A stretch of 64,000 nucleotides of DNA, taken from IMG/VR virus record IMGVR_UViG_3300029705_006930; one strand, given 5' to 3'. The notes beneath the pieces were generated by a model. It was not told where the DNA came from, did not search any database, and saw only the letters and a program-made list of their open reading frames with translations. The DNA comes from a virus. Lineage: Duplodnaviria; Heunggongvirae; Uroviricota; Caudoviricetes. The translations under genes were made by a program, and so were the position numbers. Positions within the stretch are counted from its first letter, which is position 1, and each line of letters begins with the position of its first letter. Positions 110 through 56,749 of the stretch are shown here, piece by piece.

Positions 110-1411
110 CTATATCTCATTTTCAATCTCCTCATCTTCATCGTTATATCGTATCGGACTACCTACGGGAAGCATCTCTAAAAATGCTGCTCCAGGCAAC
201 CAATATTTACTTCCATCATTTGTTCTTTTTGCAACTGAAAAATGTATGTGTGCTATGCGTCCTAAATAATCATCTCTGTGTTCCCAAAATTCTTTGCGTT
301 CTTCATCGCTATATCCAAGAGGCAGCACGACGTTGCTACCTTTATAATCAACTATAAAACTCTGCAGTATATCTTCATTTTCTTTTTTTGTGTAATCAAC
401 TATCATCAAATCTGCTTCATGCATTTGTCTTAGGTATAAGAAACTTTCACTGTTCTGTCGGTATTTATATAAGTCATAATCAAGATTAACTAAAATTCCT
501 GCGTATCCTTTTTCTTTGGCTACTCTGAATGCTTTTAAAATATTTCCTCTGTAACGTCCATTAAATAAAATCGGGGCAAGTTGTATATGTTCGGTAGGTG
601 TAAAATTCGTCTCTAAAAATGTTCGTCGGTCTTTATATATGTTTTTACATGTCTTACGGTTAAATTCTTTCAAAGATAATATGTCATAGATATAAAATAT
701 AATGTCACTTTTATCGCGCTCTGGCAGTCGGACTATCCATCGCTCTTTCATTCGGCGGTCATAAGGGGAGAGGTCTTTTGCATCCTCACCTTTATAAACA
801 AGTTCGCCATCAAATACCACTTCATCAAACGGCAAGTCATTAAATTCCTGCAAGAGTTCATCGAAGCCCTCAAGGACAATGCCGAAGCGTGTATACATTC
901 TTGCTTCGCCACATTCTTTGATAACAGCGCAGCGGGTGCCATTGTACCAACCGGAAACTGTGAACTGTCGCTGACGCACATAGTCTTCGTTACCATAGTA
1001 CAGCCCCGGCATCATCAATGGGATTTCATAAACAGTTCCCGCGCCATATACTGTATTGACCTGTTTGGCTGAAACATTTATTTCAAGGTCTCTCAGCACC
1101 GCATCAATCAAAAAGTCGTGGAGCTCAGCGGGGTAGAGGGTAAGAGAACCATGTATCTTTGCCACAGCTTTTTTATTACCCGCCCCCATATATGTCAGAT
1201 ATTCAAGCAGGTCATCACCTTCGCCTGTCACAAACGGCACAACGTCTTCGGCTGTAATTTCGGACGGCGCCCATTTATCAAAGATAAGGAAACGGCTTAA
1301 CCCAAGACGCGTTTTCCCAAACTGATACAATAAAAAGTCTGTCCACTTGGTATTTGTTGCATTACGGCGCAATATGCGTATTTTTTCATCATAAGATGTT
1401 GTGGCCGCCAA
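110..1411 (-). CDS. ATP-dependent ligase-fold nucleotidyltransferase-like protein, probably non-catalytic
   Basis: Ordered motifs with ligase-like spacing: SGWYNGTR (motif I position, K replaced by W), FDGELV (III), IFYIYDIL (IIIa), EKGYAGILVN (IV, K replaced by N). Window edge; N-terminus at 1411. Confidence 0.35.
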   Translation of the reverse strand: MAATTSYDEKIRILRRNATNTKWTDFLLYQFGKTRLGLSRFLIFDKWAPSEITAEDVVPFVTGEGDDLLEYLTYMGAGNKKAVAKIHGSLTLYPAELHDFLIDAVLRDLEINVSAKQVNTVYGAGTVYEIPLMMPGLYYGNEDYVRQRQFTVSGWYNGTRCAVIKECGEARMYTRFGIVLEGFDELLQEFNDLPFDEVVFDGELVYKGEDAKDLSPYDRRMKERWIVRLPERDKSDIIFYIYDILSLKEFNRKTCKNIYKDRRTFLETNFTPTEHIQLAPILFNGRYRGNILKAFRVAKEKGYAGILVNLDYDLYKYRQNSESFLYLRQMHEADLMIVDYTKKENEDILQSFIVDYKGSNVVLPLGYSDEERKEFWEHRDDYLGRIAHIHFSVAKRTNDGSKYWLPGAAFLEMLPVGSPIRYNDEDEEIENEI

Positions 1412-2382: not shown

Positions 2383-2440
2383 AAACCCTCCTTCATTTTT
2401 AGATGTCAAAAATCTGCGCCTGCGTCGAAGATATATATAC

Positions 2441-2495
2441 CTATATAAAGAGATACGTATATAAAGAGAAACCTATATAAAGAGATACGATACTC
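2441..2495. repeat. Three tandem iteron-like direct repeats (CCTATATAAAGAGATACG / TATATAAAGAGAAA)
   Basis: Direct repeats read between the Rep-like gene and the integrase; candidate origin iterons. Confidence 0.5.
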
Positions 2496-2620: not shown

Positions 2621-3442
2621 CTACCCATTTAATGCGCTGTCAATACTGTCCGCCATCGCATTAATTTCGCCCTGTGTTATTGTAAGGTATGTTTTTGTTA
2701 CGCGCTGGTCACTGTGCTTGTACTTTGCCTGCAAGATGTCCATAACACTGTCGTTGTTCATTGTTTTGCGCGCTGTGTATCCGTATGTTTTGCGCAGTGT
2801 ATGTGTTGCCACGTTCTGTGTGAGGCCCGCCGCCTTTGCACCTTTCTTTAAAATGTCCCACATTTGGTGCAGGCTCATTTGCCCGCCATTGTCACTTTTC
2901 TGGGACTTGATAAGGTAGTCGCTCATTGTATAGTTGCCGTTGAGATGTTCAATGTACATTTCAATGGCTTTTTTTGCGCCCGCTGTTATTTTGTTGCGAT
3001 TGTACTTGCCGGTCTTTTGTTCGTACACATCATAGTAATCTTTTACTGTACCATCCTCATTGAGAACGTCACTGATGCGCGCTCTGAGCAGGTCACTGCC
3101 TCTGTCCCCAATGGTGCAGCCAAACACTACCATCATATAATTGCGGTACTTGTGTCGGCCCCCATGTTCAAGGAAGTAGTTTGCGAGACGCTGAAATTCG
3201 TCCGCGCTGTAAAGAGGCTCTGCACTCTGTGCCTTTTTCACGCCATTGCTTTTGTAAGGCGACGCTGTTCTTGGTGCACGCTGTTTTGGCGCTGGCTTTG
3301 CTGCGGCCATTGCCTGAGCCACTGCATTTGCTATGATGCTCTGGAGCTCGTCCTGTGTCATTTGGAGCTTTGGTGCTGCCGCCTGTGCAGGAAAGTTGAT
3401 TGTATTATTCTGTACGTTTTGTTCTTTTGGCTGAGCGTTCAT
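2621..3442 (-). CDS. int: Tyrosine site-specific recombinase / integrase
   Basis: C-terminal catalytic box HTLRKTYGYTARK ... AKYKHSDQRVTKTYL (R..HxxR..Y). RBS AAGGAGG before the ATG at 3442. Confidence 0.8.
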   Translation of the reverse strand: MNAQPKEQNVQNNTINFPAQAAAPKLQMTQDELQSIIANAVAQAMAAAKPAPKQRAPRTASPYKSNGVKKAQSAEPLYSADEFQRLANYFLEHGGRHKYRNYMMVVFGCTIGDRGSDLLRARISDVLNEDGTVKDYYDVYEQKTGKYNRNKITAGAKKAIEMYIEHLNGNYTMSDYLIKSQKSDNGGQMSLHQMWDILKKGAKAAGLTQNVATHTLRKTYGYTARKTMNNDSVMDILQAKYKHSDQRVTKTYLTITQGEINAMADSIDSALNG

Positions 3443-3514
3443 AGGTGCCTCCTTGTTTGGATTTTTGTTTCCTCTTTTATTGTCTATATTATACCATGAG
3501 AGGGGCTCTTTGAT

Positions 3515-3585
3515 AACGGGGTTTTTGAAAAAACCAAAGAACTTTTTTAAATTTTTTGTGGCGCTTTATATATGTTAATGTATAT
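3515..3585. promoter_or_regulatory. Palindromes upstream of int (GGGGTTTTTTGAAAAAACC; TATATATGTTAATGTATATA)
   Basis: Perfect inverted repeats in the int 5' region; candidate operator or arm-type/att sites. Confidence 0.3.
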
Positions 3586-3599
3586 AAGGAAAGGTTGAT

Positions 3600-4240
3600 G
3601 CGGTTGTTGCGGGGCAGTGTGATTTGGCGCAAAATTAGGCGATTTTTAGGGTGTTTGCAATTGTGTAAGGTCTGGTGTTGGAAATTTGGAAAGGTGTCTT
3701 AATGCCTGAATTTGAGGCTCTGGTGGGGTTATTCTATCACAGTGCTGACGCACTGTGGCGTCGCTGTGCTCCTTTATCTTATCAACGATGAAATGTTTGT
3801 TATTATGTTGCGCGAGAGAGGGTGTGGGGCGCGAAATTTGGGGGCCGGAGAGGTGGGAGGCGCGGTTTTGGGGCGAAATTGGGGCCCGGGTGGCCGGGGC
3901 TAAAATGGGCGTTTCCGGGGGTGTTTTGAGGGGTGTTTGGATAAGTTGCACAAAAATAGAAAAGCCACAGCCGGCTCTGTATGGGGCTAGCTGTGGTTCT
4001 TGTTGTTTATGGGCGTGATTTTGTTGTTTTTATAGTGTTTTGTGGCAAAAATGGTGAAAAAATGTGTAAAAAGGCGCGAAAATGCGTCAAAATGTGTGAT
4101 TTTTGATGATTTTTGGGTGGATTTGGTGTGGAATCAGGGCGAAATGGTGTGGAATGTTGTGTTTGGAGGGTGTTGTGGGGGTGAAAAGTGGACAAATATT
4201 GCTTTTTATGAGCCGAGAGTGAGATATAGCGACGCGTAGC
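3600..4240. other. G+T-skewed non-coding region (C/A-poor on + strand) with G-runs and short repeated motifs
   Basis: Long stretches almost devoid of C. Repeated GGCGCGAAA, GGTGTGGAAT, GAAAATG. Hairpin AGCCACAGCcggctctgtatggggctaGCTGTGGTT. Only low-complexity spurious ORFs. Confidence 0.5.
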
Positions 4241-4306
4241 TTATTATATACATTAAATCTGTCGCAAAGTCAAAATATCCCCCTACGGCAGTTTAAACCG
4301 CTTTAT

Positions 4307-4340
4307 ATCGGTAAATATCAACCTTTGTGAAAAGTTGATA
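4307..4340 (+). terminator. Rho-independent terminator-like hairpin (ATATCAAC..GTTGATAT + T-run)
   Basis: 8 bp perfect stem followed by TTTTTT. Confidence 0.5.
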
Positions 4341-4390
4341 TTTTTTGTACAAAATTTTTCGATTTTTCAAAAATCGGACGCTTGTTGCTA

Positions 4391-4419
4391 TTGACAATCT
4401 GTCGCTCAGGATTTACAAT
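4391..4419 (+). promoter_or_regulatory. SigA-type promoter TTGACA-N17-TACAAT for the sigma-factor gene
   Basis: Consensus -35 and near-consensus -10. Flanked by palindrome CGATTTTTCAAAAATCG (4357–4375) and inverted repeat GTGTAAACcgacaaGTTTACAC (4428–4449). Confidence 0.55.
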
Positions 4420-4545
4420 TTTAAGTGTAAACCGACAAGTTTACACCTACAATTCAATATATCTGTTGTGATTGTTCAAAGGGGGGTACAGATACACAAT
4501 CACAAAATCACACACTATTCAATATTTAAAGGAAGGTATTTATCT

Positions 4546-5241
4546 ATGAAAAAACTCACAAGAAAACAGCTTAAAGCAATAAAAAACACATCAAGCTACA
4601 AATATTTTGAACAATTGAAAACCCTTAAAGGCTCAATGCCGGCAGACAGCAAAAAAACCTATATAGAGCCAAATTCAGACCTTGAAAAATTCGCAAAATT
4701 GCAAGTTATGACCTTAAACAAATATATCCGCCAAGACGGCAAGGGACACAACTTGGCAGCACAAGTTTTGCAAGATTTACAACAGCAAGCTTGTTTGCTT
4801 ATTCTGGAAAACCCTTTAAGCCTTGACTGCTTTACAACAGAACAAGATAAACAGACAGAACAACAGCAACAAGCATTTAAGGCGGTTAAAAATGGTTTAT
4901 ATAGGTATTATTATCACAACTATACAAGCCGCAGCACATCTAAAATTCACAATAACCCGTCAAGTTACATTGCAACAGCTACATATCAAGCAACCGACGA
5001 TATCGGCAAAGATGCACGCGACAGCTATCAAATGGACCTTTACAAATTACATCTGGATGCAATTTTGACAATTTTAACAACGGATGAAAAATACATCTTT
5101 AATGGTTTATTTGTTGAAAACTTAACACAAAAACAACTTGCCGAAAAACTCAATAAATCACAAACTTATGTAGCAAAAACACTTGCAAATATCCGTAGCA
5201 AAATCAAAGCAAATGACCTTGATACACCGATAAACAATTAA
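4546..5241 (+). CDS. Phage-encoded sigma-70 family sigma factor
   Basis: Region-4 HTH LTQKQLAEKLNKSQTYVAKTLANIRSKI; region-2-like upstream segment. RBS AAAGGAAGG; start at codon 68 of the track ORF. Confidence 0.6.
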   Translation: MKKLTRKQLKAIKNTSSYKYFEQLKTLKGSMPADSKKTYIEPNSDLEKFAKLQVMTLNKYIRQDGKGHNLAAQVLQDLQQQACLLILENPLSLDCFTTEQDKQTEQQQQAFKAVKNGLYRYYYHNYTSRSTSKIHNNPSSYIATATYQATDDIGKDARDSYQMDLYKLHLDAILTILTTDEKYIFNGLFVENLTQKQLAEKLNKSQTYVAKTLANIRSKIKANDLDTPINN

Positions 5242-6053: not shown

Positions 6054-6920
6054 ATGAAACTTAACGAAAAGAAAAACGAAATTTTGTCCGCTATTTCCGC
6101 ACTTAACAAGTTGCTTGTAAACAACGAAAGCAAAAAAGCCGATATCGACAAGGCTCTTGAAAACATCCAGAGCGAAATCAAAGCCTACAATGCCGAAAGA
6201 ACAAGGCTCACTTTTGTTGGGTTGGCTCAGACTGATGAACCTGTTAAAAACGCAATCATTCAGTTGAATTTTGACATCATCAAACTGAAAACAAACAAAG
6301 ACAAGGACACAGATAAAGTGTCATATGAACTTGTAAATGCGAAAAAACAAATCGAATTGCTTGAATTTTCAAAGTATCTCGGTAAAGCAAGTTTTGCAGA
6401 CGAAAACTGGAAATACAAAGTGGAAAAATTCAATCAGCTTATCACATTCAAAGCGGTAAAAGATTTGAATGGCGATATGAACACAATCGCAAAAAGTTTC
6501 TACATCAGCAAACTTGCTGAAAGTGTTGATTTGGGCAAAACACCAACATCAAACACACAGGTTCTCAAACAGTTGCAGACTGTTGTGGACGCAATCATTC
6601 ACGAAAACAAAAGCGAGAATGATGACACAAACAAATTCAAAGTACTGTCTCACGATGTTGCATACATCGTAAAATTGATGTGTAAACGTGCCGACAGCGG
6701 AAAAATCGTAATGCCAAAAGTTTCCTCAATGCACACATTGGTGATGGATGTACTTCACCGTATTGTATGCGACCTCGATTACAAAATCGAATATTCCAAG
6801 AAAAAGGAAGAAGAAACTGCACAGGCTGAAGCCGAAAATGAAATCGAAGCAGCTCAGGAAGAACCAAAAGCTGTAGATGAAAATGCTGAAGAAAAAACAG
6901 CAAAACCAAAAGCGAAATAA
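6054..6920 (+). CDS. Hypothetical early protein, K/E-rich C-terminus
   Basis: RBS AAGGAG; long 5' leader of about 600 nt with hairpins; terminator follows. Confidence 0.6.
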   Translation: MKLNEKKNEILSAISALNKLLVNNESKKADIDKALENIQSEIKAYNAERTRLTFVGLAQTDEPVKNAIIQLNFDIIKLKTNKDKDTDKVSYELVNAKKQIELLEFSKYLGKASFADENWKYKVEKFNQLITFKAVKDLNGDMNTIAKSFYISKLAESVDLGKTPTSNTQVLKQLQTVVDAIIHENKSENDDTNKFKVLSHDVAYIVKLMCKRADSGKIVMPKVSSMHTLVMDVLHRIVCDLDYKIEYSKKKEEETAQAEAENEIEAAQEEPKAVDENAEEKTAKPKAK

Positions 6921-13139: not shown

Positions 13140-14540
13140 ATGGCACACACATTTAAAAAATGGATGATAAAAGCCATTCCATATGACAACTTGTTTGACA
13201 TATCGGTGGACTTTGAGAATCCATTCCCGACCGATAATCGTCGCGATGCTACACTCGCGGCTGCATTTCACTGTTTGATTAAAGACAGAATTCCAGAGGG
13301 GGTTAATCGCATTGTAGTGCGTGATATCCACTCATATGACTGCAACGTGAGAGACATTTTTGACTATTATGAGGTTGAAAATGGTTTCAAAAGTTGTATT
13401 TTTTACTACGCAGATTGGGACAATGTGAATCTGCAGAGCAAAATTACATTGCCAAATGAATGGGAAGCTCAGGAAATTGCAAGCAAATTTACTGGATGTT
13501 ATGTTACAAATCACGTATCAAAACAATTGATGGTTATCTTTATTCCGAGCAACTATAACCTTGAAACTTGGCATAGACTTGGTGCATTGTTACCAAAATA
13601 TCCAGTGCTCGAGGATATGTGGGCAGCAAAACCACTTACCGAAGATGAACTCAAGATGTTGAAATCACTGTCAACAGACGGTGTAGATTTTGACACATAT
13701 ATAAAAGCGTGGATTGCGACACTCGACCTGCGCACATCCGCAATCAAAAAAATGTTCAACAAATTCATTATTGATAACATCGAGGAACAGATACGCAATG
13801 CCGAAGATAGACGTAGAAGCCTTGAAAACAATATCACAGACTATGCTGCGAGACTGGCAAGGCTGTATAGCGACCTTGACGGTGTTATTGAAATGATAAA
13901 CCGTCTTATGATAGGTGATGACACTGTTGAAGAAAAAGAAAAGAGACTTATCGAATTCTTGTTAACAAACAAAAATGTTGAGCCAATCAGACGTCGCAAT
14001 GACCGCGTTGAATTCAATGTTCACGCAGCAATTGACTGTTGGGATAACGATATGTTCTCATCTTATATCAATAATCACAACAGTTTATTGTATCGCCATA
14101 CAAGCAGATATTCATATGACCAGTTGAAACGTTTTTATGAGCAGGCATTGTTTGCCGGTCGCTTTAAAATTCAGGGCATTGCTAAATTTGAAATTGCAGC
14201 AACAGGTAATGTGAGACCAATTTCAAAAAATGGGCATTGGCCATCAGCTGAAATCGAAAACTGTATTCCAAATACACATGTGGATAAATTCACTTGTATT
14301 GGTAATCACAGACGTATGCTGGATGATGCTGCAAAAATTCGTGACTATGAACAGGCAATTTTGATTGCTATTCAGATTACACAGTCAGTTAACTGGTCGG
14401 ATGGTGCAGTTATGAATCACTTTATTCCTGAAGTGTTGCACTGTGAACGTCCAATTCTTACAGACAGAACAGGCAATACATACACTGTTGCACAGGTAAT
14501 AAGCATACTTGATGCCGAAATAAAGGAGGTTGAAAAATAA
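13140..14540 (+). CDS. Large hypothetical protein, possible E2-like component
   Basis: Sits in the E2 position of a Ubl-E2-DUB-E1 order. C-terminal PNTHVDKFTCIGN is weakly HPN-Cys-like. E2 assignment is weak. Confidence 0.5.
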   Translation: MAHTFKKWMIKAIPYDNLFDISVDFENPFPTDNRRDATLAAAFHCLIKDRIPEGVNRIVVRDIHSYDCNVRDIFDYYEVENGFKSCIFYYADWDNVNLQSKITLPNEWEAQEIASKFTGCYVTNHVSKQLMVIFIPSNYNLETWHRLGALLPKYPVLEDMWAAKPLTEDELKMLKSLSTDGVDFDTYIKAWIATLDLRTSAIKKMFNKFIIDNIEEQIRNAEDRRRSLENNITDYAARLARLYSDLDGVIEMINRLMIGDDTVEEKEKRLIEFLLTNKNVEPIRRRNDRVEFNVHAAIDCWDNDMFSSYINNHNSLLYRHTSRYSYDQLKRFYEQALFAGRFKIQGIAKFEIAATGNVRPISKNGHWPSAEIENCIPNTHVDKFTCIGNHRRMLDDAAKIRDYEQAILIAIQITQSVNWSDGAVMNHFIPEVLHCERPILTDRTGNTYTVAQVISILDAEIKEVEK

Positions 14541-15484: not shown

Positions 15485-16174
15485 ATGGACTTAAGTAAAT
15501 CACTTGACTGGTTTAATCCAGACAGCGTTTCGGAACGCATACATATTATCGGATGCGGTAGTGTAGGTAGTACAGTTGTGGAACTGTTGGCAAGATTCGG
15601 TCTTACAAAGTTCACTCTGTATGATTTTGACCTTGTTGAACCTCACAATATCGCAAACCAGATGTTCAGAAAAACGGACATTGGTAAAACAAAAGTTGAA
15701 GCATTGCAGCAGATTGTATGTGAAATCAATCCAGAGGCGGGCAAAGATATTAAACTTGAACCAGAAGGTTGGCACGGACAGCAGTTGTCTGGCTATGTAG
15801 TTCTTGCTGTTGATAGCATTGAATTGCGTAAAAAGATTTGTGAAGGTTTGCAGATGAATATCTTTGTTAAAGCTGTGTTTGATTTCCGTACAAGTTTGCT
15901 CAACGCACAGCATTATGCAGCCAATTGGCAGGACAAAAAACATCGTGATGACCTCATTGCAACAATGCAGTTCACCGATGAAGAAGCTGCGGCTGAAAAC
16001 CCAGTATCAGCGTGTGGTGTAACACTTGGTGTCGCACCAACAGTAAGACTGATATGCACACTAGGCGTAAGCAATATGATGAACTTTTTCAGAGAAAAGA
16101 AATTGAAAAAAGTTGTATTGGCAGACGCATTTAATTTTGATGCTGACCCTATGGTATTACCTATGGGTCAATAA
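15485..16174 (+). CDS. E1-like ThiF/MoeB-family adenylyltransferase
   Basis: IIGCGSVGSTVVELLARFGL...LYDFDLVEPHNIANQMF, a Rossmann GxGxxG plus D.D.VE.sN..RQ signature. Confidence 0.75.
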   Translation: MDLSKSLDWFNPDSVSERIHIIGCGSVGSTVVELLARFGLTKFTLYDFDLVEPHNIANQMFRKTDIGKTKVEALQQIVCEINPEAGKDIKLEPEGWHGQQLSGYVVLAVDSIELRKKICEGLQMNIFVKAVFDFRTSLLNAQHYAANWQDKKHRDDLIATMQFTDEEAAAENPVSACGVTLGVAPTVRLICTLGVSNMMNFFREKKLKKVVLADAFNFDADPMVLPMGQ

Positions 16175-16199
16175 TACACAATAAGAGAAATGTTTATGG

Positions 16200-16500
16200 T
16201 GAATATTGCACATTGTATGGCAAGCTTTTGCTGTTAGCAGAAGTAAAGAAATGGTAGAGAACATAGAGGCAGGCGCTTAAGGAGCACGCTGAGGTGATTC
16301 CTAAGTACTGCAGCTTCTTGCATCCGACGAGCTCTGAAAAGGTAGGTTTAACAGGAGGATTGGATTACTTACAAGTGAAATTAACCAGTTCAAACCGTAA
16401 AGCTCATCTGAAATTAACGATAAATCCCAGATTTGCATCTCTTTTATCCGGGAATGAAGGGCTTAAAACTATAGCTAGACCATAAACAAGATAGGGAGGA
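16200..16500 (+). ncRNA. Candidate structured non-coding RNA upstream of the RT (contains repeat copy 1)
   Basis: 320 nt gap with repeat TTGCTGTTAGCAGaagtaaaGAAATGGTAGAGAA. An alternative GTG-start 63 aa ORF (16294..16485) with RBS AAGGAG cannot be excluded. Confidence 0.25.
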
Positions 16501-16504
16501 CATT

Positions 16505-17860
16505 ATGGTTTATATCACATATCCAGCACCTAACAAATTTCATCAGATTACATTTGAAGAAATGATGTCGGGCAATGTTAATACAGATAAATTAAGAATT
16601 TTAGGCGGACATAATACGCTTACTTTGCATCTTAACGATGTACCTGCAAACTTAAAAGGTCAGACTTCTGTACGCAAAATGATTGCAGATTTGCAGTATT
16701 TTGTAGGTGTATATTATGACACACTGATGCCACAGATAAAAGAATTTGAGAAGCTTTCAGATGCTCAGCGTCGCAGCGTCAAACAGCGTGACAAGATTGA
16801 AAATTATTTTGAACAGATGGGCGCAACTGCAAATGATGAAGACTTGCAGAAAATCACTGAACAGGTAGATGCGCTGCAGTGTGAAGTTGCAGAACAGCAG
16901 TATAAATATGCTTACTATACATTCGATTTGCGCAAAAGTTCAGCGCCGGAACACATTCCATTGTGGCGACTGCCAAAAGAATACAGACGTACAATCAATG
17001 CTCCGAACATACATCTTAAAAATGCGCTATATGAACTTAAAGAACTGTTTGAAAATATGATGATACGTACATATCATACTGCATCATTTGCGTATGTTAA
17101 ACATCGTGGAACTTTGGATGCTGTAAAACGTCATCAGAGCTGGGAAAGCAAATGGTTTGCAAAGTTTGACTTTTCAGATTTCTTTGGTAGCACAACAATT
17201 GACTTTGTTATGCAACAGTTCTCTCAAATATATCCGTTTAATATGATTTGTGCATATAAAGATGGTAAAGAAGCTCTTTATAAAGCATTGCAGTTGTGTT
17301 TTTTGGACGGTGGACTTCCACAGGGCACACCTATTAGTCCTCTCATCACAAACATAATGATGATACCATTTGACCACGCAATGTCAAAAGCTCTTAAAGA
17401 ATTTAAATATCCAAACAAACACGGTAGTGAACGTTTTGTGTATACAAGATATGCTGATGACCTGCTTATCAGTTGCCGTGTGGATTTTAAAGTGGAAATT
17501 ATTCAGGCATTTATTCTGGAAACTTTAAAATCAATGAATGCGCCTTTTAGCCTTAACGTTAAGAAAACTCGTTACGGTTCTAGTGCAGGTAGCAACTGGA
17601 ATCTTGGGGTGATGCTTAACAAAGACAATAAAATTACAATCGGTGCAGAAAACAAGCGCAGACTTAAAGCTTCTTTGAATTCATTTATCCTTGATATGAA
17701 GAATGAAAAACCTTGGGATATTTCTATGGTGTATAGACTCAGAGGTCAGATTTCTTATTATCGTAATGTGGAAAGGGAAGCAACAAATAACATCATTGCA
17801 GCGATGAACACAAAATATGGTGTTGATGCAGAAGCAATGATGAAATCTATTATAAGTTAA
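16505..17860 (+). CDS. Reverse transcriptase, retron/Abi-like
   Basis: RT motifs FAYVKHRGTLDAV, KFDFSDFFGS, LPQGTPISPLITN, YTRYADDLLIS (YADD). Motif-7 region NLGVMLNKDNKITIGAENKRR aligns to the retron VTGLVIS...IGRE block. Confidence 0.8.
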   Translation: MVYITYPAPNKFHQITFEEMMSGNVNTDKLRILGGHNTLTLHLNDVPANLKGQTSVRKMIADLQYFVGVYYDTLMPQIKEFEKLSDAQRRSVKQRDKIENYFEQMGATANDEDLQKITEQVDALQCEVAEQQYKYAYYTFDLRKSSAPEHIPLWRLPKEYRRTINAPNIHLKNALYELKELFENMMIRTYHTASFAYVKHRGTLDAVKRHQSWESKWFAKFDFSDFFGSTTIDFVMQQFSQIYPFNMICAYKDGKEALYKALQLCFLDGGLPQGTPISPLITNIMMIPFDHAMSKALKEFKYPNKHGSERFVYTRYADDLLISCRVDFKVEIIQAFILETLKSMNAPFSLNVKKTRYGSSAGSNWNLGVMLNKDNKITIGAENKRRLKASLNSFILDMKNEKPWDISMVYRLRGQISYYRNVEREATNNIIAAMNTKYGVDAEAMMKSIIS

Positions 17861-31167: not shown

Positions 31168-31395
31168 ATGAATTTATATGGTGATTATATGAATAAAAAG
31201 ATGGAAGGAAAGATTGAAGAATCTTATAGGCATATTAAACCGTATCTTAAAGACCAAGAAATTTTAAAAGATATGTGTGAGCGTTGCGAGAGGTATTGTG
31301 GTAGGCAGCACGATTATGAAGAATGTTTGGATATGCCTTGTTTCAAATGTTTCTTGGGATATTCATATCTTCAATGGGAAACATCATGGGAATAA
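31168..31395 (+). CDS. Hypothetical Cys-rich small protein
   Basis: ORF track. Confidence 0.4.
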   Translation: MNLYGDYMNKKMEGKIEESYRHIKPYLKDQEILKDMCERCERYCGRQHDYEECLDMPCFKCFLGYSYLQWETSWE

Positions 31396-31419
31396 AAACA
31401 AACTTTTATGAGGTGAATT

Positions 31420-31725
31420 ATGGAAGTAAAAGAAGCAATTAAATACATTAATGATATTTTATCCTCTGATTATCATTATGATGAAACATTGGGATATCAA
31501 CTAACTTCAGATGATATTGAATGGTTAGAGATAGCAAAAGAAGCTCTTGAAAAACAGATTCCAAAGAAGCCTGAGAAGCTGACGTATAAGTTGCTGATTG
31601 ATGATGGTTGGATGTATGGATGTCCTACTTGTGGGTGTGCTTGTGGAGAAAACAAGTATCATCCAGACGTTACCAAAGGTGATATTTATTGTACACAGTG
31701 TGGGCAGATGTTGGATTGGAAGTAA
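31420..31725 (+). CDS. Zinc-ribbon protein
   Basis: CPTCGCACGE...CTQCGQ; RBS GAGGTG. Confidence 0.5.
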   Translation: MEVKEAIKYINDILSSDYHYDETLGYQLTSDDIEWLEIAKEALEKQIPKKPEKLTYKLLIDDGWMYGCPTCGCACGENKYHPDVTKGDIYCTQCGQMLDWK

Positions 31726-31752
31726 TAAAAATAAAATTTTAAGAGGTTGATT

Positions 31753-31971
31753 ATGGTTAAAGCGTATTCAAGAGGTTGGGAAATTTATTATGATGGCGAG
31801 AACTGGAGATATGTAGACAACAACGAAATCGAAAACGATTCTCGTCCTTGTAAGAAATGTGGATGTGTGCCGACAAAAGAAGGTTATGATGCTTGTTTAG
31901 GGCATATCAAAGGAGCAAAGTCTGCTTGTTGTGGGCATGGTGCAGAAGAACCATATATTATATATGAATAA
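31753..31971 (+). CDS. Small Cys-rich protein
   Basis: RBS AAGAGGTTG; CKKCGC...CCGHG. Confidence 0.45.
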   Translation: MVKAYSRGWEIYYDGENWRYVDNNEIENDSRPCKKCGCVPTKEGYDACLGHIKGAKSACCGHGAEEPYIIYE

Positions 31972-31988
31972 TAAAAATAGAGTTTTAA

Positions 31989-32174
31989 TTGAGGCAATTT
32001 ATGAAATACATAGCGACTATACGAATCCCAACACAAATTCCAAATAAAAATAGGATGGTATTTTCAGTAGAATGTGCATTTAAACAATTAGAAGATATAA
32101 AGAAACAATATAATGTGTTGCGGTCAAAATGGATTGACGGCGATTTAGTGGTAGAGTTTGAGGTAGAAATATGA
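31989..32174 (+). CDS. Small hypothetical protein
   Basis: ORF track. Confidence 0.4.
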   Translation: MRQFMKYIATIRIPTQIPNKNRMVFSVECAFKQLEDIKKQYNVLRSKWIDGDLVVEFEVEI

Positions 32175-32440
32175 AGTATAAAGTAATTAATATTTGTACA
32201 AATGAAGATGTAACAAATAAATATCCTTGGGTTATCACACCAAATGGAAATCTTTATTATCTGGATGGCGGAGATTTAACAGGTGATTTTGACGCTGAAT
32301 ATATTATTGAAGGAATTTATTTGCCTAATGATAAAATCCCAGAAAAAGATGAGTATTATCTTGACATGTCTGAAACTTCTGCTGCTTATGTTAATGGCTG
32401 GAATGATTGTCTTGAAGAAATTTTGGAGAGAAGCAAATAA
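32171..32440 (+). CDS. Hypothetical protein
   Basis: Overlapping start. Confidence 0.45.
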   Translation: MKYKVINICTNEDVTNKYPWVITPNGNLYYLDGGDLTGDFDAEYIIEGIYLPNDKIPEKDEYYLDMSETSAAYVNGWNDCLEEILERSK

Positions 32441-32466
32441 AAATGAAGTTTTAAGAGGTGGAAAAT

Positions 32467-32736
32467 ATGTTTGATATGAGTAAAGTATGCGAATATGCGT
32501 GTGATAGATATTATCAGGTGGTATATAGTTTAGGTCAGTACGATGTCGAGCAAAGCGTTCATGGTCTACTTCTGAATTATTATAGTGGCAATGTGGTTTT
32601 ATTGTCTGAAAAGGGAATATATCATATTAAGTATAAAGACATTGTTTTTATGAGACCAGTTGAACCACTCACAAATAAACTTAGTAAAGAGTTTAATGAG
32701 CTATTGGAATCTTTTAGAGAAGATAATATATCTTAA
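32467..32736 (+). CDS. Hypothetical protein
   Basis: RBS GAGGTGG before the internal ATG. Confidence 0.45.
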   Translation: MFDMSKVCEYACDRYYQVVYSLGQYDVEQSVHGLLLNYYSGNVVLLSEKGIYHIKYKDIVFMRPVEPLTNKLSKEFNELLESFREDNIS

Positions 32737-55426: not shown

Positions 55427-56749
55427 ATGAGACAAATATTAAATATGAGAGAAACATTAACGCGAGTAAGTTTTTTATTTAAGACTATTGCGAGTACACC
55501 AAGGACAACTGAAAAGAAACGATTGTTGCGTTATATCAACAGCTCAGAACCAGAGAATGTATGTGAAATGTTTCTGTATACTTTACGATTTTTATTGGAT
55601 AACAATGTAACAACAGGTATCGATAAAAAGAAACTCAAAGCTCAAATTAATATGCCTGATATTAATTTTCCAATGAAATGGTCACATATGTTGGAATATA
55701 TCAAAGAAAACAATACAGGAAGGCATGAAGATATTCGCAGAGCACAGCTCTTTATCGAAGATAATCCCGAGAATGCGGAATTTATTGCTGATATTATAAC
55801 AAAATCATATAGGTTAGGACTGACAGCCAAAACAGTAAATGAAGTTTATGAAGATTTTATTCCTGTTTGGTCAGTACAGCAGGCATATCCTTTGGAAAAA
55901 TATCCGCTTAAGGACGGAGAATGGTTTTCTTTATCACAAAAGCTTAATGGGTTCCATGCCTCATATTACAAGGGTAAATTAATAAGCCGACAAGGAAAAG
56001 AAATCAAAGGTTGTAAGCACGTTATTAACGCAATAAACAACTTTAAACTTCAAGATTTCTTTATTGATGGCGAGCTTATCCGGCGTAATGATATTGAACC
56101 TCATCTCTCAGACGAAGAAAATTTTCGACAGACTGTTTCAATTGCGAATTCTGATTCTGACGACAAAACAGACCTGTGTTTTATTTATTATGATATCATT
56201 CCAGCTGATGATTTTGACAAAGGCAAATGTGAAATAACATATCGCCAACGTCTTAATGACATGCATAAATTAAACAGTATAATTCTGCAGACTCCATTTT
56301 ATAAAACGTTTCATATGGTGAAATGGTTTTATCACGGCAATGACCAAAAGAAAATTCAGTTTTGGCTTGATTATGCAAATGAAAATGATATGGAGGGTCT
56401 TATGTTAAATAAGGATACTGTATATCAATGCAAACGTAATTCAGGCATTTTAAAGGTAAAAAGTTGGAAACATTGTGACCTTAGAGTAACGGGCGTTGAA
56501 GAAGGCGATGGCAAATACAAAGGAACCCTTGGAAAACTGATTGTGGACTATAAAGGAAATACTTTGGGATTAAGTGGAATGAGCGATGAGGAACGTTATA
56601 TATTTTGGAATAATCCACAGGACATAGTTGGGAAGATTGTGCTCGTTAAATATAAACAGGAAACAAAAGACAAAACAGGTAAACGTAGTTTGCAGTTCGC
56701 AACCTACCAAGGTGTTAGAACTGATAAAGATGAAGTCAGCTACAATTAA
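55427..56749 (+). CDS. ATP-dependent DNA ligase
   Basis: KLNGFHA (I), FIDGELI (III), EGLMLNK (IV), ILKVKSW (V). Confidence 0.65.
   Translation: MRQILNMRETLTRVSFLFKTIASTPRTTEKKRLLRYINSSEPENVCEMFLYTLRFLLDNNVTTGIDKKKLKAQINMPDINFPMKWSHMLEYIKENNTGRHEDIRRAQLFIEDNPENAEFIADIITKSYRLGLTAKTVNEVYEDFIPVWSVQQAYPLEKYPLKDGEWFSLSQKLNGFHASYYKGKLISRQGKEIKGCKHVINAINNFKLQDFFIDGELIRRNDIEPHLSDEENFRQTVSIANSDSDDKTDLCFIYYDIIPADDFDKGKCEITYRQRLNDMHKLNSIILQTPFYKTFHMVKWFYHGNDQKKIQFWLDYANENDMEGLMLNKDTVYQCKRNSGILKVKSWKHCDLRVTGVEEGDGKYKGTLGKLIVDYKGNTLGLSGMSDEERYIFWNNPQDIVGKIVLVKYKQETKDKTGKRSLQFATYQGVRTDKDEVSYN

Follow-up and report, generated by a model that had tools for sequence, protein, structure and literature searches.

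A G-rich, helically phased non-coding array beside an Xer-like recombinase gene as a candidate central replication origin of large uncultured phages

What does a strongly strand-skewed block of DNA, placed beside a recombinase gene and between two divergent sets of genes, contribute to a large phage? The question is raised by positions 3600–4240 of the stretch analyzed here, the 64,000 nucleotides (the window) of IMG/VR virus record IMGVR_UViG_3300029705_006930 (Caudoviricetes), in which position w corresponds to position 96,278 + w of a 208,311-bp JGI metagenome contig. The block takes up most of a gene-free gap of 1,103 bp, with the gene of a tyrosine recombinase on the left (int, 273 aa, minus strand, 2621–3442; Pfam PF00589 at 1.4e-12, PHROG 216 integrase) and rightward early genes on the right. 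A first-pass annotation had flagged the block for its skew and had offered several explanations: an origin of replication or transfer, a packaging or att region, an RNA from the minus strand, or DNA that forms G-quadruplexes (G4). Comparison with relatives, as far as sequences can tell, supports a conserved cis-acting non-coding element and not a compositional accident. As for its role, our tentative preference is for the curved, strand-asymmetric scaffold of a central replication origin, a nucleoprotein or R-loop-prone structure, which we regard as possible rather than probable.

Composition, phasing and conservation of the array

On the plus strand the block contains 21.1% A, 11.7% C, 35.9% G and 31.4% T, compared with window means of 35.6, 15.5, 19.8 and 29.1%; it differs from the rest mainly in having more G and less A. 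In sliding windows of 640 nt, the maxima of G+T (0.686 at 3543; mean 0.489, sd 0.035, 5.6 sd up), of GC skew (+0.535 at 3552; mean 0.126, sd 0.109) and of the G fraction (at 3584) all fall here, in agreement with the strong G+T skew reported initially. The skew is atypical of intergenic DNA, since the 21 other gene-free gaps of at least 150 nt outside the int neighborhood reach only 0.43–0.59 in G+T (GC content 0.26–0.42). These statistics dispose of the possibility, allowed for at the outset, that such a skew is usual between the genes of this phage.

Runs of four or more G are concentrated in the block, which holds 11 of the window's 52 in 1.06% of its length and has a single run of three or more C; the G-rich strings first singled out are located at 3826, 3840 and 3880. 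The description of the block as almost free of C was an overstatement, as 75 of its 641 nt are C and the window's longest stretches without C lie outside it. Only the segment 4000–4210 is properly C-poor (4.7% C), and the C residues are concentrated at 3960–3999 and at a small hairpin at 3738–3770 (−14 to −15.5 kcal/mol; z −1.6 on the plus and −2.9 on the minus strand). The strong hairpin annotated at 3964–3998 is real by calculation (−26.3 kcal/mol on the plus strand, z −3.8, versus −17.4 kcal/mol on the minus strand); with the T-rich tail that follows (3964–4012, plus strand) it resembles a rightward intrinsic terminator. Among the repeated motifs reported, GGCGCGAAA (3828 and 4073) and GGTGTGGAAT (4125 and 4146) hold up, each pair being the only one in the window, but GAAAATG does not characterize the block, where it is found once, compared with 34 times in the window as a whole.

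Just two matches to G4-type motifs are found in the 64 kb, both on the plus strand of the block, at 3820–3857 (loops of up to 12 nt) and 3870–3899 (loops of up to 7 nt). Both belong to the densest cluster of G-runs (3811–3940, plus strand), with 11 runs of at least three G and an 11-bp period. Given the composition, G-runs are not over-represented in the block (14 versus 10.1 ± 3.9 expected); tracts of A4 or T4 are, at 29 versus 8.7 ± 3.4 expected (6 sd). The pentamer GCGCG is enriched at the block (4 versus 0.4 expected), and the Chi sequence of B. subtilis, AGCGG, was sought there and is absent.

These elements follow the helical repeat. The array proper (3588–4211, plus strand), delimited by composition and periodicity, is the window's version of a non-coding array of 400–650 bp in which G-rich clusters alternate with A/T-tracts once per helical turn. 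The periodicity of strong and weak bases (S/W) over the whole array peaks at 10.5 bp, with a power of 8.9 versus 4.6 ± 1.3 in shuffles; the Fourier peak is again at 10.5 bp over 4000–4215 (23.7 versus 4.4 ± 1.3) and at 11 bp over 3800–3950. Background phage windows give a power of 2.9 ± 1.4. Nine of 11 relatives peak at 10.25–11 bp, and at most 1.3% of shuffles reach the observed value. Tandem Repeats Finder (TRF) reports units of 10–12 bp in every lineage (10–11 bp in the window), and the base-identity autocorrelation over the 35 distinct sequences compared peaks at lags of 10–11, 21, 31 and 42. The arrays of close relatives differ by indels of 11, 12, 23 and 31 nt, or about one, one, two and three helical turns; as these approximate whole turns and not multiples of three, they argue for non-coding DNA that gains and loses repeat units.

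Homopolymer A/T-tracts at the period of the helical repeat are the classic signature of intrinsically curved DNA and of binding sites that present proteins with a single helix face. Ten such tracts (T4, T5, T4, A5, A6, A5, A4, A4, T5, T5) succeed one another at 4019–4114 with center spacings of 8.5–11.5 bp, and intrinsically curved DNA is therefore predicted there. All units face one way; the array is therefore strand-asymmetric and the polarity of its skew constant. As to the G4-forming DNA proposed at first, the plus strand is predicted to be prone to G4 and R-loops, but the phasing appears to point to DNA architecture more than to G4 alone. The first-pass annotation had noted neither this phasing nor the boundary 10-mer and the conservation across dozens of phages described below.

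We compared the window with two sets of loci: group A, which comprises the window, L011, L013, L014 and L015, and group B, a much larger set of human-gut contigs of 139–162 kb from a profile scan. The recombinases of group A are 52–62% identical and lie in syntenic order (recombinase, a gene of 300-odd codons, ligase, RdRP-family gene), and the recombinases of group B are 33–40% identical. Each of L011 and L013–L015 has a C-rich, G-poor block upstream of the recombinase gene on its sense strand. In all loci of both groups the minimum of GC skew on the int-sense strand is −0.43 to −0.65 (−0.33 in L014) and lies 450–1400 nt upstream of int, or 450–625 nt upstream of the recombinase match in group B (−0.43 to −0.65). 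Wherever the block is found, its polarity relative to the recombinase is the same. A third set of loci, with a 35%-identical recombinase in a co-directional gene cluster, is without the block.

Among relatives, the array shows no conservation of primary sequence. At the block end far from the recombinase, nearly all the group A and B loci examined have the 10-mer GCCGAGAGTG or a close variant (GCYGAGAKTK and CCCGAGAGTG among the relatives); it was not found in L067 and L098. In the window this boundary 10-mer is present in a single copy at 4212–4221, its G-rich strand being the plus strand. In both groups a small hairpin follows and then, 60–75 nt past the 10-mer, a run of five or six C, a spacing kept in the 21 loci compared and then in 13 more; the window has an A-run and then a C5 run at 4270–4283 (AAAATATCCCCC, plus strand). 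A scan of IMG/VR by exact pattern added at least two further subgroups among the matches listed, including one contig of 233 kb, with recombinases 58–67% identical to those of group B. At least 54 loci (at least 35 distinct sequences) from rumen and human gut have the 10-mer preceded by 200 nt with a GC skew above 0.3, and in each of these loci that is long enough a divergent recombinase gene of 31–67% identity lies 390–460 nt away. The 10-mer itself is doubled in tandem at a spacing of exactly 11 bp in L105 (about 371–382 in locus coordinates, minus strand; GCTGAGAGTTG GCCGAGAGTTG), and in L013 a partial further copy (AGCCGAGTAG) lies some 30 bp upstream.

A protein-coding block was considered and rejected. 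The open reading frames 3646–3951 (minus strand), 3755–4018 (plus), 4042–4239 (plus) and 4007–4195 (minus) have no Pfam or PHROG match, and their translations are of low complexity. A structured RNA module around the 10-mer was rejected as well, the minimum free energies being no better than those of shuffles in six of seven lineages. Rfam 15, run on the window and its relatives, gave nothing at the gathering score and chance-level matches (E > 1) under relaxed thresholds. There are no tRNA or tmRNA genes.

The recombinase at the other end of the block is Xer-like. Residues R114, H214-x-x-R217, H243 and Y252 are invariant in 12 recombinase homologues, and the best Foldseek matches of the recombinase model are XerA, XerH and XerD; by sequence the protein has no match in the PDB. 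Its N-terminal 76 or so residues are modeled with low confidence, with one helix before the catalytic domain. An analogy with the master-repressor system of SPβ (MrpR/SPBRE) was dropped, as MrpR has lost its catalytic residues (PMC10516654) and the recombinase here keeps them. MT835544 is the best deposited match of the recombinase, and no block was found in it. When 185,579 species genomes were scanned for integrated relatives, only distant matches in contigs of metagenome-assembled genomes (MAGs) were returned, without a block beside the recombinase gene. The att region among the initial suggestions thus has neither integrated relatives nor a confidently folded N-terminal recombinase domain in its favor, and a phage attP was rejected because no integrated prophage junction was found and the recombinase model appears to have no arm-binding N-terminal domain.

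A possible central origin and its alternatives

The block lies at a switch of orientation. To the left of the gap all genes are leftward for at least 10 kb, to the right they are rightward for more than 60 kb, and the sign of the GC skew changes together with the gene divergence at 2.4–4.5 kb of the window. The recombinase gene and the block are at about 48% of the 208-kb contig and at 46–57% in 10 of 11 group B contigs (139–162 kb). Because the block is central in these contigs, their ends must be non-random and roughly opposite to it. A block at a central switch of orientation and skew fits an origin, as proposed at first; the proposed packaging site is not supported, as full-length contigs have the block near their middle and not at their ends.

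Polarity, phasing, turnover by whole units, a conserved end, a neighbor prone to unwinding and central divergence, taken together, speak for a scaffold of DNA that acts in cis, and less for a gene or a structured RNA. Phased A-tracts bend DNA, and bends, like iterons, are a usual trait of origins in phages and plasmids; a non-template strand with G clusters favors R-loops, as in ColE1 RNA II, the mitochondrial conserved sequence block (CSB) II and T4 oriF and oriG. We picture a central origin as follows. The array ends at the 10-mer GCCGAGAGTG, the short hairpin, the C5 run and an easily melted AT-rich segment. The phased A/T-tracts would curve the DNA, which would wrap, or be wrapped by, a protein of phage or host origin that nucleates at the 10-mer. 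A promoter beside the recombinase gene would drive rightward transcription across the G-rich, C-poor non-template strand, where an R-loop or G4 would be favored and would help to open the adjacent AT-rich DNA. Forks would depart both ways from the opened DNA, and the adjacent Xer-like recombinase would resolve or cyclize the replicated genomes.

For the melting step, the second least stable 50-bp window of the intergenic region starts 112 bp past the 10-mer. Low-stability windows of this size start 73–112 bp past it in the window, L013, L014 and L015, four of the five loci of group A, and 166–284 bp past it in L011 and group B; promoter regions are AT-rich too, so the feature is not specific. 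In the window, a CTTTATATC copy (4299–4311), then a hairpin, ATATCAACCTTT / AAAAGTTGATAT, and a T-run (4313–4343, plus strand) stand at the start of the segment. In group B2 a CAACCTT...AAGTTG hairpin was seen by eye at the matching place.

Several points weigh against a replication origin. No gene neighboring the block has an initiator-like match in Pfam or PHROG, and DnaA boxes, when searched for, were neither enriched nor clustered. The switch of skew and orientation is confounded with the direction of transcription, and the central position presumes that the contigs end where the genomes do. Classical iteron sets are several times shorter than the array, the window's own rightward promoter is weak (9/12), and the idea that upstream array units are in-phase copies of the 10-mer was not supported. 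The tight linkage to a recombinase across 31–67% identity is unneeded for an origin and fits a recombination site better.

This linkage leads to the strongest rival of a replication origin, which we hold to be unlikely. The 10-mer region would be the target site of the adjacent Xer-like recombinase, with a core at or just after GCCGAGAGTG and before the C5 run, and the curved array would be a one-sided accessory arm, as in cer and psi, that imposes intramolecular selectivity while multimers are resolved or a plasmid-like prophage genome is cyclized. The invariable linkage, with block and 10-mer always adjoining the recombinase gene in constant orientation, would thereby be explained, and single-recombinase Xer systems are genetically linked to their site, as for XerS/difSL (PMC2731167). 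The invariant R, HxxR, H and Y, the Xer-like fold, a 10-mer that is single-copy in the window, short inverted repeats between 10-mer and C-run, and the one-sidedness of an array whose top-strand G-runs face the C5 run on the far side are all in keeping with such a site, and a ParE/RelB pair in L013 hints at plasmid-like maintenance. However, no conserved dyad (two inverted arms with a 6–8 bp spacer) was found at the 10-mer, where only lineage-specific hairpins with loops of 3–8 nt occur; the 35%-identical recombinase of another phage group does without the block; the FtsK-orienting polar sequences (KOPS) and SpoIIIE recognition sequences (SRS) are absent as octamers; and both the G-richness and the central position are left unexplained. 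Somewhat more doubtful is a block that is read rightward as a G/U-rich, C-poor non-coding RNA (ncRNA) or leader, acting as a protein sponge rich in RNA G-quadruplexes or as a leader that shields the early operon's transcript from Rho. Around the block, the candidate promoters and terminators do point rightward (promoter-like sites at 3525–3553 and 3779–3806, the terminator-like hairpin at 3964–4012), L011 has a strong promoter in the same place, and hairpins with T-runs past the 10-mer in some subgroups carry UUCG or UACG loops and a stem change from C-G to U-A. But no Rfam family is matched, most folds are near those of shuffled sequence (z −0.02 to −1.4), the putative 200-nt G-rich RNA included, and neither the 10.5-nt period nor homopolymer A/T-tracts have an obvious rationale in RNA. 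A CsrA-type sponge was rejected, as GGA/ANGGA motifs are depleted (11 versus 18.5 ± 3.4).

Transcription in the other direction fares less well. As a giant Rho-loading (rut) site, the block would be a polar insulator at which Rho stops leftward transcripts before the recombinase operon, and the CA-rich tract after int would end int transcripts likewise; we find this rather improbable. A leftward RNA would have far more C than G (4.7% G over 210 nt) and little structure, and similar C/A-rich tracts lie on both sides of int in group A. Known rut sites have a bias of C over G and low structure, each Rho subunit binding 5 nt with linkers of 4–5 nt, a period of about 9–10 nt (PMC12360218). Yet phased A/T homopolymer tracts are foreign to rut sites, the array is 5–10 times the optimum of 60–90 nt, and no conserved leftward promoter was found to the right of the block in the window or its relatives, the strong promoters there all being rightward. 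The same absence tells against the C/A-rich minus-strand RNA of the first-pass annotation. We consider improbable, too, the partition centromere of a plasmid-like prophage, in which 10–12 bp iterons would be bound cooperatively by an adaptor of the ParR/TubR type, as in parC and tubC. Tandem units of 10–12 bp in helical phase and variable copy number, the failure to find integrated relatives, the toxin-antitoxin pair of L013 and a faint HTH_ParB match of a neighboring 231-aa protein (E 0.0099) would suit it, set against units that are very degenerate, an array far longer than known parC and tubC, and the lack of any ParA, ParM/ParR or TubZ/TubR-type gene among the neighbors scanned. Least probable, and very much so, is an invertible switch of the fimS type, in which the recombinase would flip the segment between perfect 13-nt inverted repeats that flank the block exactly (3575–3587 and 4244–4256). 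The blocks of L014 and L015 are flanked by 22-nt inverted repeats, a small recombinase gene is adjacent, and curved DNA would aid synapsis. However, the same phage is represented in other samples by ten contigs that are 100% identical and collinear over the block region (consensus assemblies would miss a minority orientation), all loci with the block share one polarity relative to int, L011 and, in group B, L101 and L067 have no flanking inverted repeat, and the L014 and L015 repeats are operator-like GTTTACA sites that are direct repeats in L013. Inversion is not supported, and nor is attP.

A replication origin, although it is the reading we prefer, could also be one of two outcomes of something less familiar. 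In the array, large phages of the Clostridia type may have a kind of polar cis element not described before, a strand-asymmetric track of G clusters and phased A/T-tracts that has the conserved 10-mer as its end. It would act via non-B DNA (a co-transcriptional R-loop or G4 on a curved scaffold) and either fire a central bidirectional origin or deliver and activate the adjacent Xer-like recombinase; this broader proposal is speculative, and we consider it unlikely.

Features around the array

Between int and the next leftward gene, a tandem repeat of 16 bp in 3.2 copies with three CTTTATATA motifs was detected by TRF (2437–2488, minus strand); L011, L013 and L015 have tandem repeats of 16–17 bp at the same position. 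The CTTTATATA motif occurs nine times in the window versus 1.45 expected and brackets int and block, with three tandem copies after int and one copy on each side of the block. Directly after the recombinase stop codon lies a tract at 2519–2620 that is rich in C and A and poor in T and G on the minus strand, and so G+T-rich and A-free on the plus strand. It holds the longest A-free plus-strand run of the window (54 nt, at 2519), has counterparts after int in L011, L013, L014 and L015, and may be a Rho-loading 3' region. The stretch at 2530–2620 had been taken for a second one free of both A and C; the first part is sound (3 A in 91 nt), and the second is not (16 C).

The int gene has a promoter-like site with a TG element at 3488–3516 (minus strand, TTATCA-17-TATAAT; TTGAAT-17-TATAAT in group B). 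Back to back with it, the weak rightward site (3525–3553, plus strand, TTGAAA-17-TAAATT, 9/12) reads into the block. In L011 the strong promoter beside the recombinase start is TTGACA-18-TATACT (11/12), also reading into the block, and similar promoters were seen by eye in L013 and L014. The left boundary of the block (3562–3587, plus strand) consists of a CTTTATATA copy at 3564–3572 that overlaps the left arm of the 13-nt inverted repeat. Within the block, the second promoter-like site (3779–3806, plus strand, TTATCA-16-TATTAT, with a TG element) is just upstream of the densest G-run cluster.

Past the 10-mer come the right arm of the inverted repeat (TTATATACATTAA, 4244–4256) and, beyond the C5 run, the second flanking motif copy, CTTTATATC, to the right of the block (4299–4311, plus strand). 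The GC-rich hairpins with T-runs are subgroup-specific and lie some 25–45 nt past the 10-mer; those of L015 and L014 have UUCG and UACG loops, respectively, the change of C-G to U-A in the stem being compensatory. The early rightward promoter (4391–4419, plus strand, TTGACA-17-TACAAT) is overlapped by a 38-bp palindrome that starts right after the −10 element and has 16-nt arms and a 6-nt spacer (4417–4454). This palindrome looks like an operator, although its geometry would fit a recombinase core too; in L013, L014 and L015, multiple copies of its GTTTACA half-sites are found to either side of the block.

In these three relatives, and not in the window, 750–900 nt between the block and the first rightward gene are gene-free (L013 3520–4400, L014 4130–5060, L015 2300–3200). 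The stretch has two or three tandem TTGACA-17-TATAAT promoters, a hairpin and T-run at its end, and no Rfam match. It contains CCTTGAAAA(C/T)TAAACA, which we take to resemble the boxA of Firmicutes rrn leaders, and could represent a large phage ncRNA of a new kind or a leader for antitermination. The ParE toxin and RelB antitoxin pair of L013 lies at 200–773; together with the failure to find integrated relatives, this is a hint that the prophage lives extrachromosomally, like a plasmid.

The first rightward gene of the window (4546–5241) encodes an HTH/sigma-region-4-like protein. A 288-aa early protein (6054–6920) is kept in all relatives and has a confident AlphaFold model (pLDDT 84, pTM 0.74), with no Pfam or PHROG family and no sequence or fold match in the PDB. 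The replication genes on the window are those of a DnaE-type polymerase, a DnaB-like helicase, a Sak4-like ATPase, two ATP-dependent ligases, a ribonucleotide reductase and a reverse transcriptase (RT); the replisome genes are 37–48 kb from the block, and the ligase genes stand one on each genome arm, at 110–1411 (minus strand) and 55427–56749 (plus strand). A PF05183 RdRP-family polymerase gene of the YonO/crAss type (621–842 aa) is kept in the leftward operon downstream of recombinase and ligase, at 13556–15427 in L001 coordinates, some 100 nt left of window position 1, and at 9.6–12.2 kb in L011 and L014. The RT (RVT_1, 451 aa) adjoins a ThiF-family protein (15485–17860), and a 43-nt repeat occurs three times around its gene (16222, 17896 and 18393). 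A link of the block to the RT at 16.5 kb, in a diversity-generating retroelement or a retron, was rejected, as no repeats of the template/variable type (TR/VR) were found and the two are 12 kb apart. The second-highest region of GC skew in the window is at 31200–32700 (about +0.38 in 640-nt windows) and includes a gene-free gap at 32441–32659 (skew +0.49). Contigs of the same phage from four other assemblies stop at 4355–4360, 3988 and 3915, two of them within an AT-rich palindrome (4324–4373), which may reflect assemblies that broke at DNA of low complexity or palindromic sequence, or else hint at a discontinuity in the molecule itself.

Phages with the block have genomes of 140–230 kb, come from rumen and human-gut samples and are known only from metagenomes; their early genes are nearly all orphans. 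No close DNA relative of the phage of the window was found among 50,697 deposited phages, nor in scans of IMG/VR by exact pattern and by single protein. By polymerase, its nearest cultured relatives are large siphoviruses of Firmicutes at about 37% identity, and the genome collections offer Clostridia MAGs as the nearest matches. Among cultured phages, Geobacillus virus E3 has the closest DnaE polymerase; it differs in gene layout, and its first 50 kb have no obvious counterpart of the block.

Known systems and significance

Arrays of phased, bent repeats are known from origins, and accessory arms from resolution sites; the block is a distinctive variant of these kinds. With iteron and bent-DNA origins (lambda ori, P1 oriR, pSC101, R6K; SPP1 oriL) it shares helically phased direct repeats, predicted intrinsic bending, an intergenic or regulatory location, a single copy and what may be an AT-rich unwinding segment next to it. 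While those origins have 4–9 well-defined iterons, the block presents 400–650 bp, some 40–60 turns, of very degenerate units with a strong asymmetry of G over C, no recognizable adjacent initiator gene and DnaA boxes that are not enriched. With R-loop origins (ColE1 RNA II, T4 oriF and oriG, mitochondrial CSB II, herpesvirus oriLyt) it has in common a candidate promoter, weak in the window and strong in L011, that would read into a G-cluster non-template strand, and a downstream hairpin or terminator with an AT-rich region. The 10.5-bp phasing of A/T-tracts is a trait of the block only, which would belong to a double-stranded DNA phage of about 208 kb, apparently of Clostridia.

Among recombination modules, cer/psi, XerS/difSL, XerH/difH and Cre/loxP likewise pair a gene, Xer-like here, with a single-copy cis site beside it, and the long one-sided flank is a possible accessory arm. 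The block differs in having no recognized dyad-symmetric core, and known accessory sequences are about 180 bp long and bind ArgR, PepA or ArcA rather than being G-rich phased arrays. The dif sites are found at termini, with a skew polarity opposite to that of the block. Like the KOPS and SRS guides of FtsK and SpoIIIE, the array consists of G-rich, strand-polar sequences that point to a site beside a recombinase of the Xer type (PMC3384302); unlike them, it has neither of the octamers GGGNAGGG and GAGNAGGG, is orders of magnitude denser than one per 10–20 kb, and is one-sided, with just a single C5 run beyond the site. Read from the minus strand, the block resembles rut regions, being rich in C, poor in G and without structure and repeating about every 10 nt; it departs from them in its homopolymer A/T-tracts, a length 5–10 times greater and the lack of a conserved promoter for the transcript. 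The tracts at 4019–4114 resemble kinetoplast-type curved DNA with its phased A5–6 tracts: A/T-tracts of 4–6 nt recur every 10–11 bp with G/C-rich spacers, as is classic for strong curvature. This is a structural likeness only and no evolutionary or functional relation.

What sets the variant apart is its extent of several hundred base pairs, its strong G skew, an architecture kept across many uncultured large phages, and its tie to a minimal Xer-like recombinase and a 10-mer. In practical terms, GCCGAGAGTG after a G-skewed array with 10.5-bp phasing, next to an Xer-like gene, is a signature by which related genomes can be searched for and oriented. Should the block prove to be an ordinary origin, its value would lie chiefly in annotation. 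As a central cis element, it is a likely handle on the start of replication or on multimer resolution in these genomes, and it offers a link, open to testing, between a minimal recombinase of the Xer type and the unusual architecture that flanks its gene. It is also a natural case of DNA, predicted to be curved and prone to G4 and R-loops, that would be under selection while its primary sequence turns over by the gain and loss of repeat units. If the array were indeed a polar cis element that works through non-B DNA, it would be a bacteriophage counterpart of the logic of mitochondrial CSBs or of immunoglobulin switch regions.

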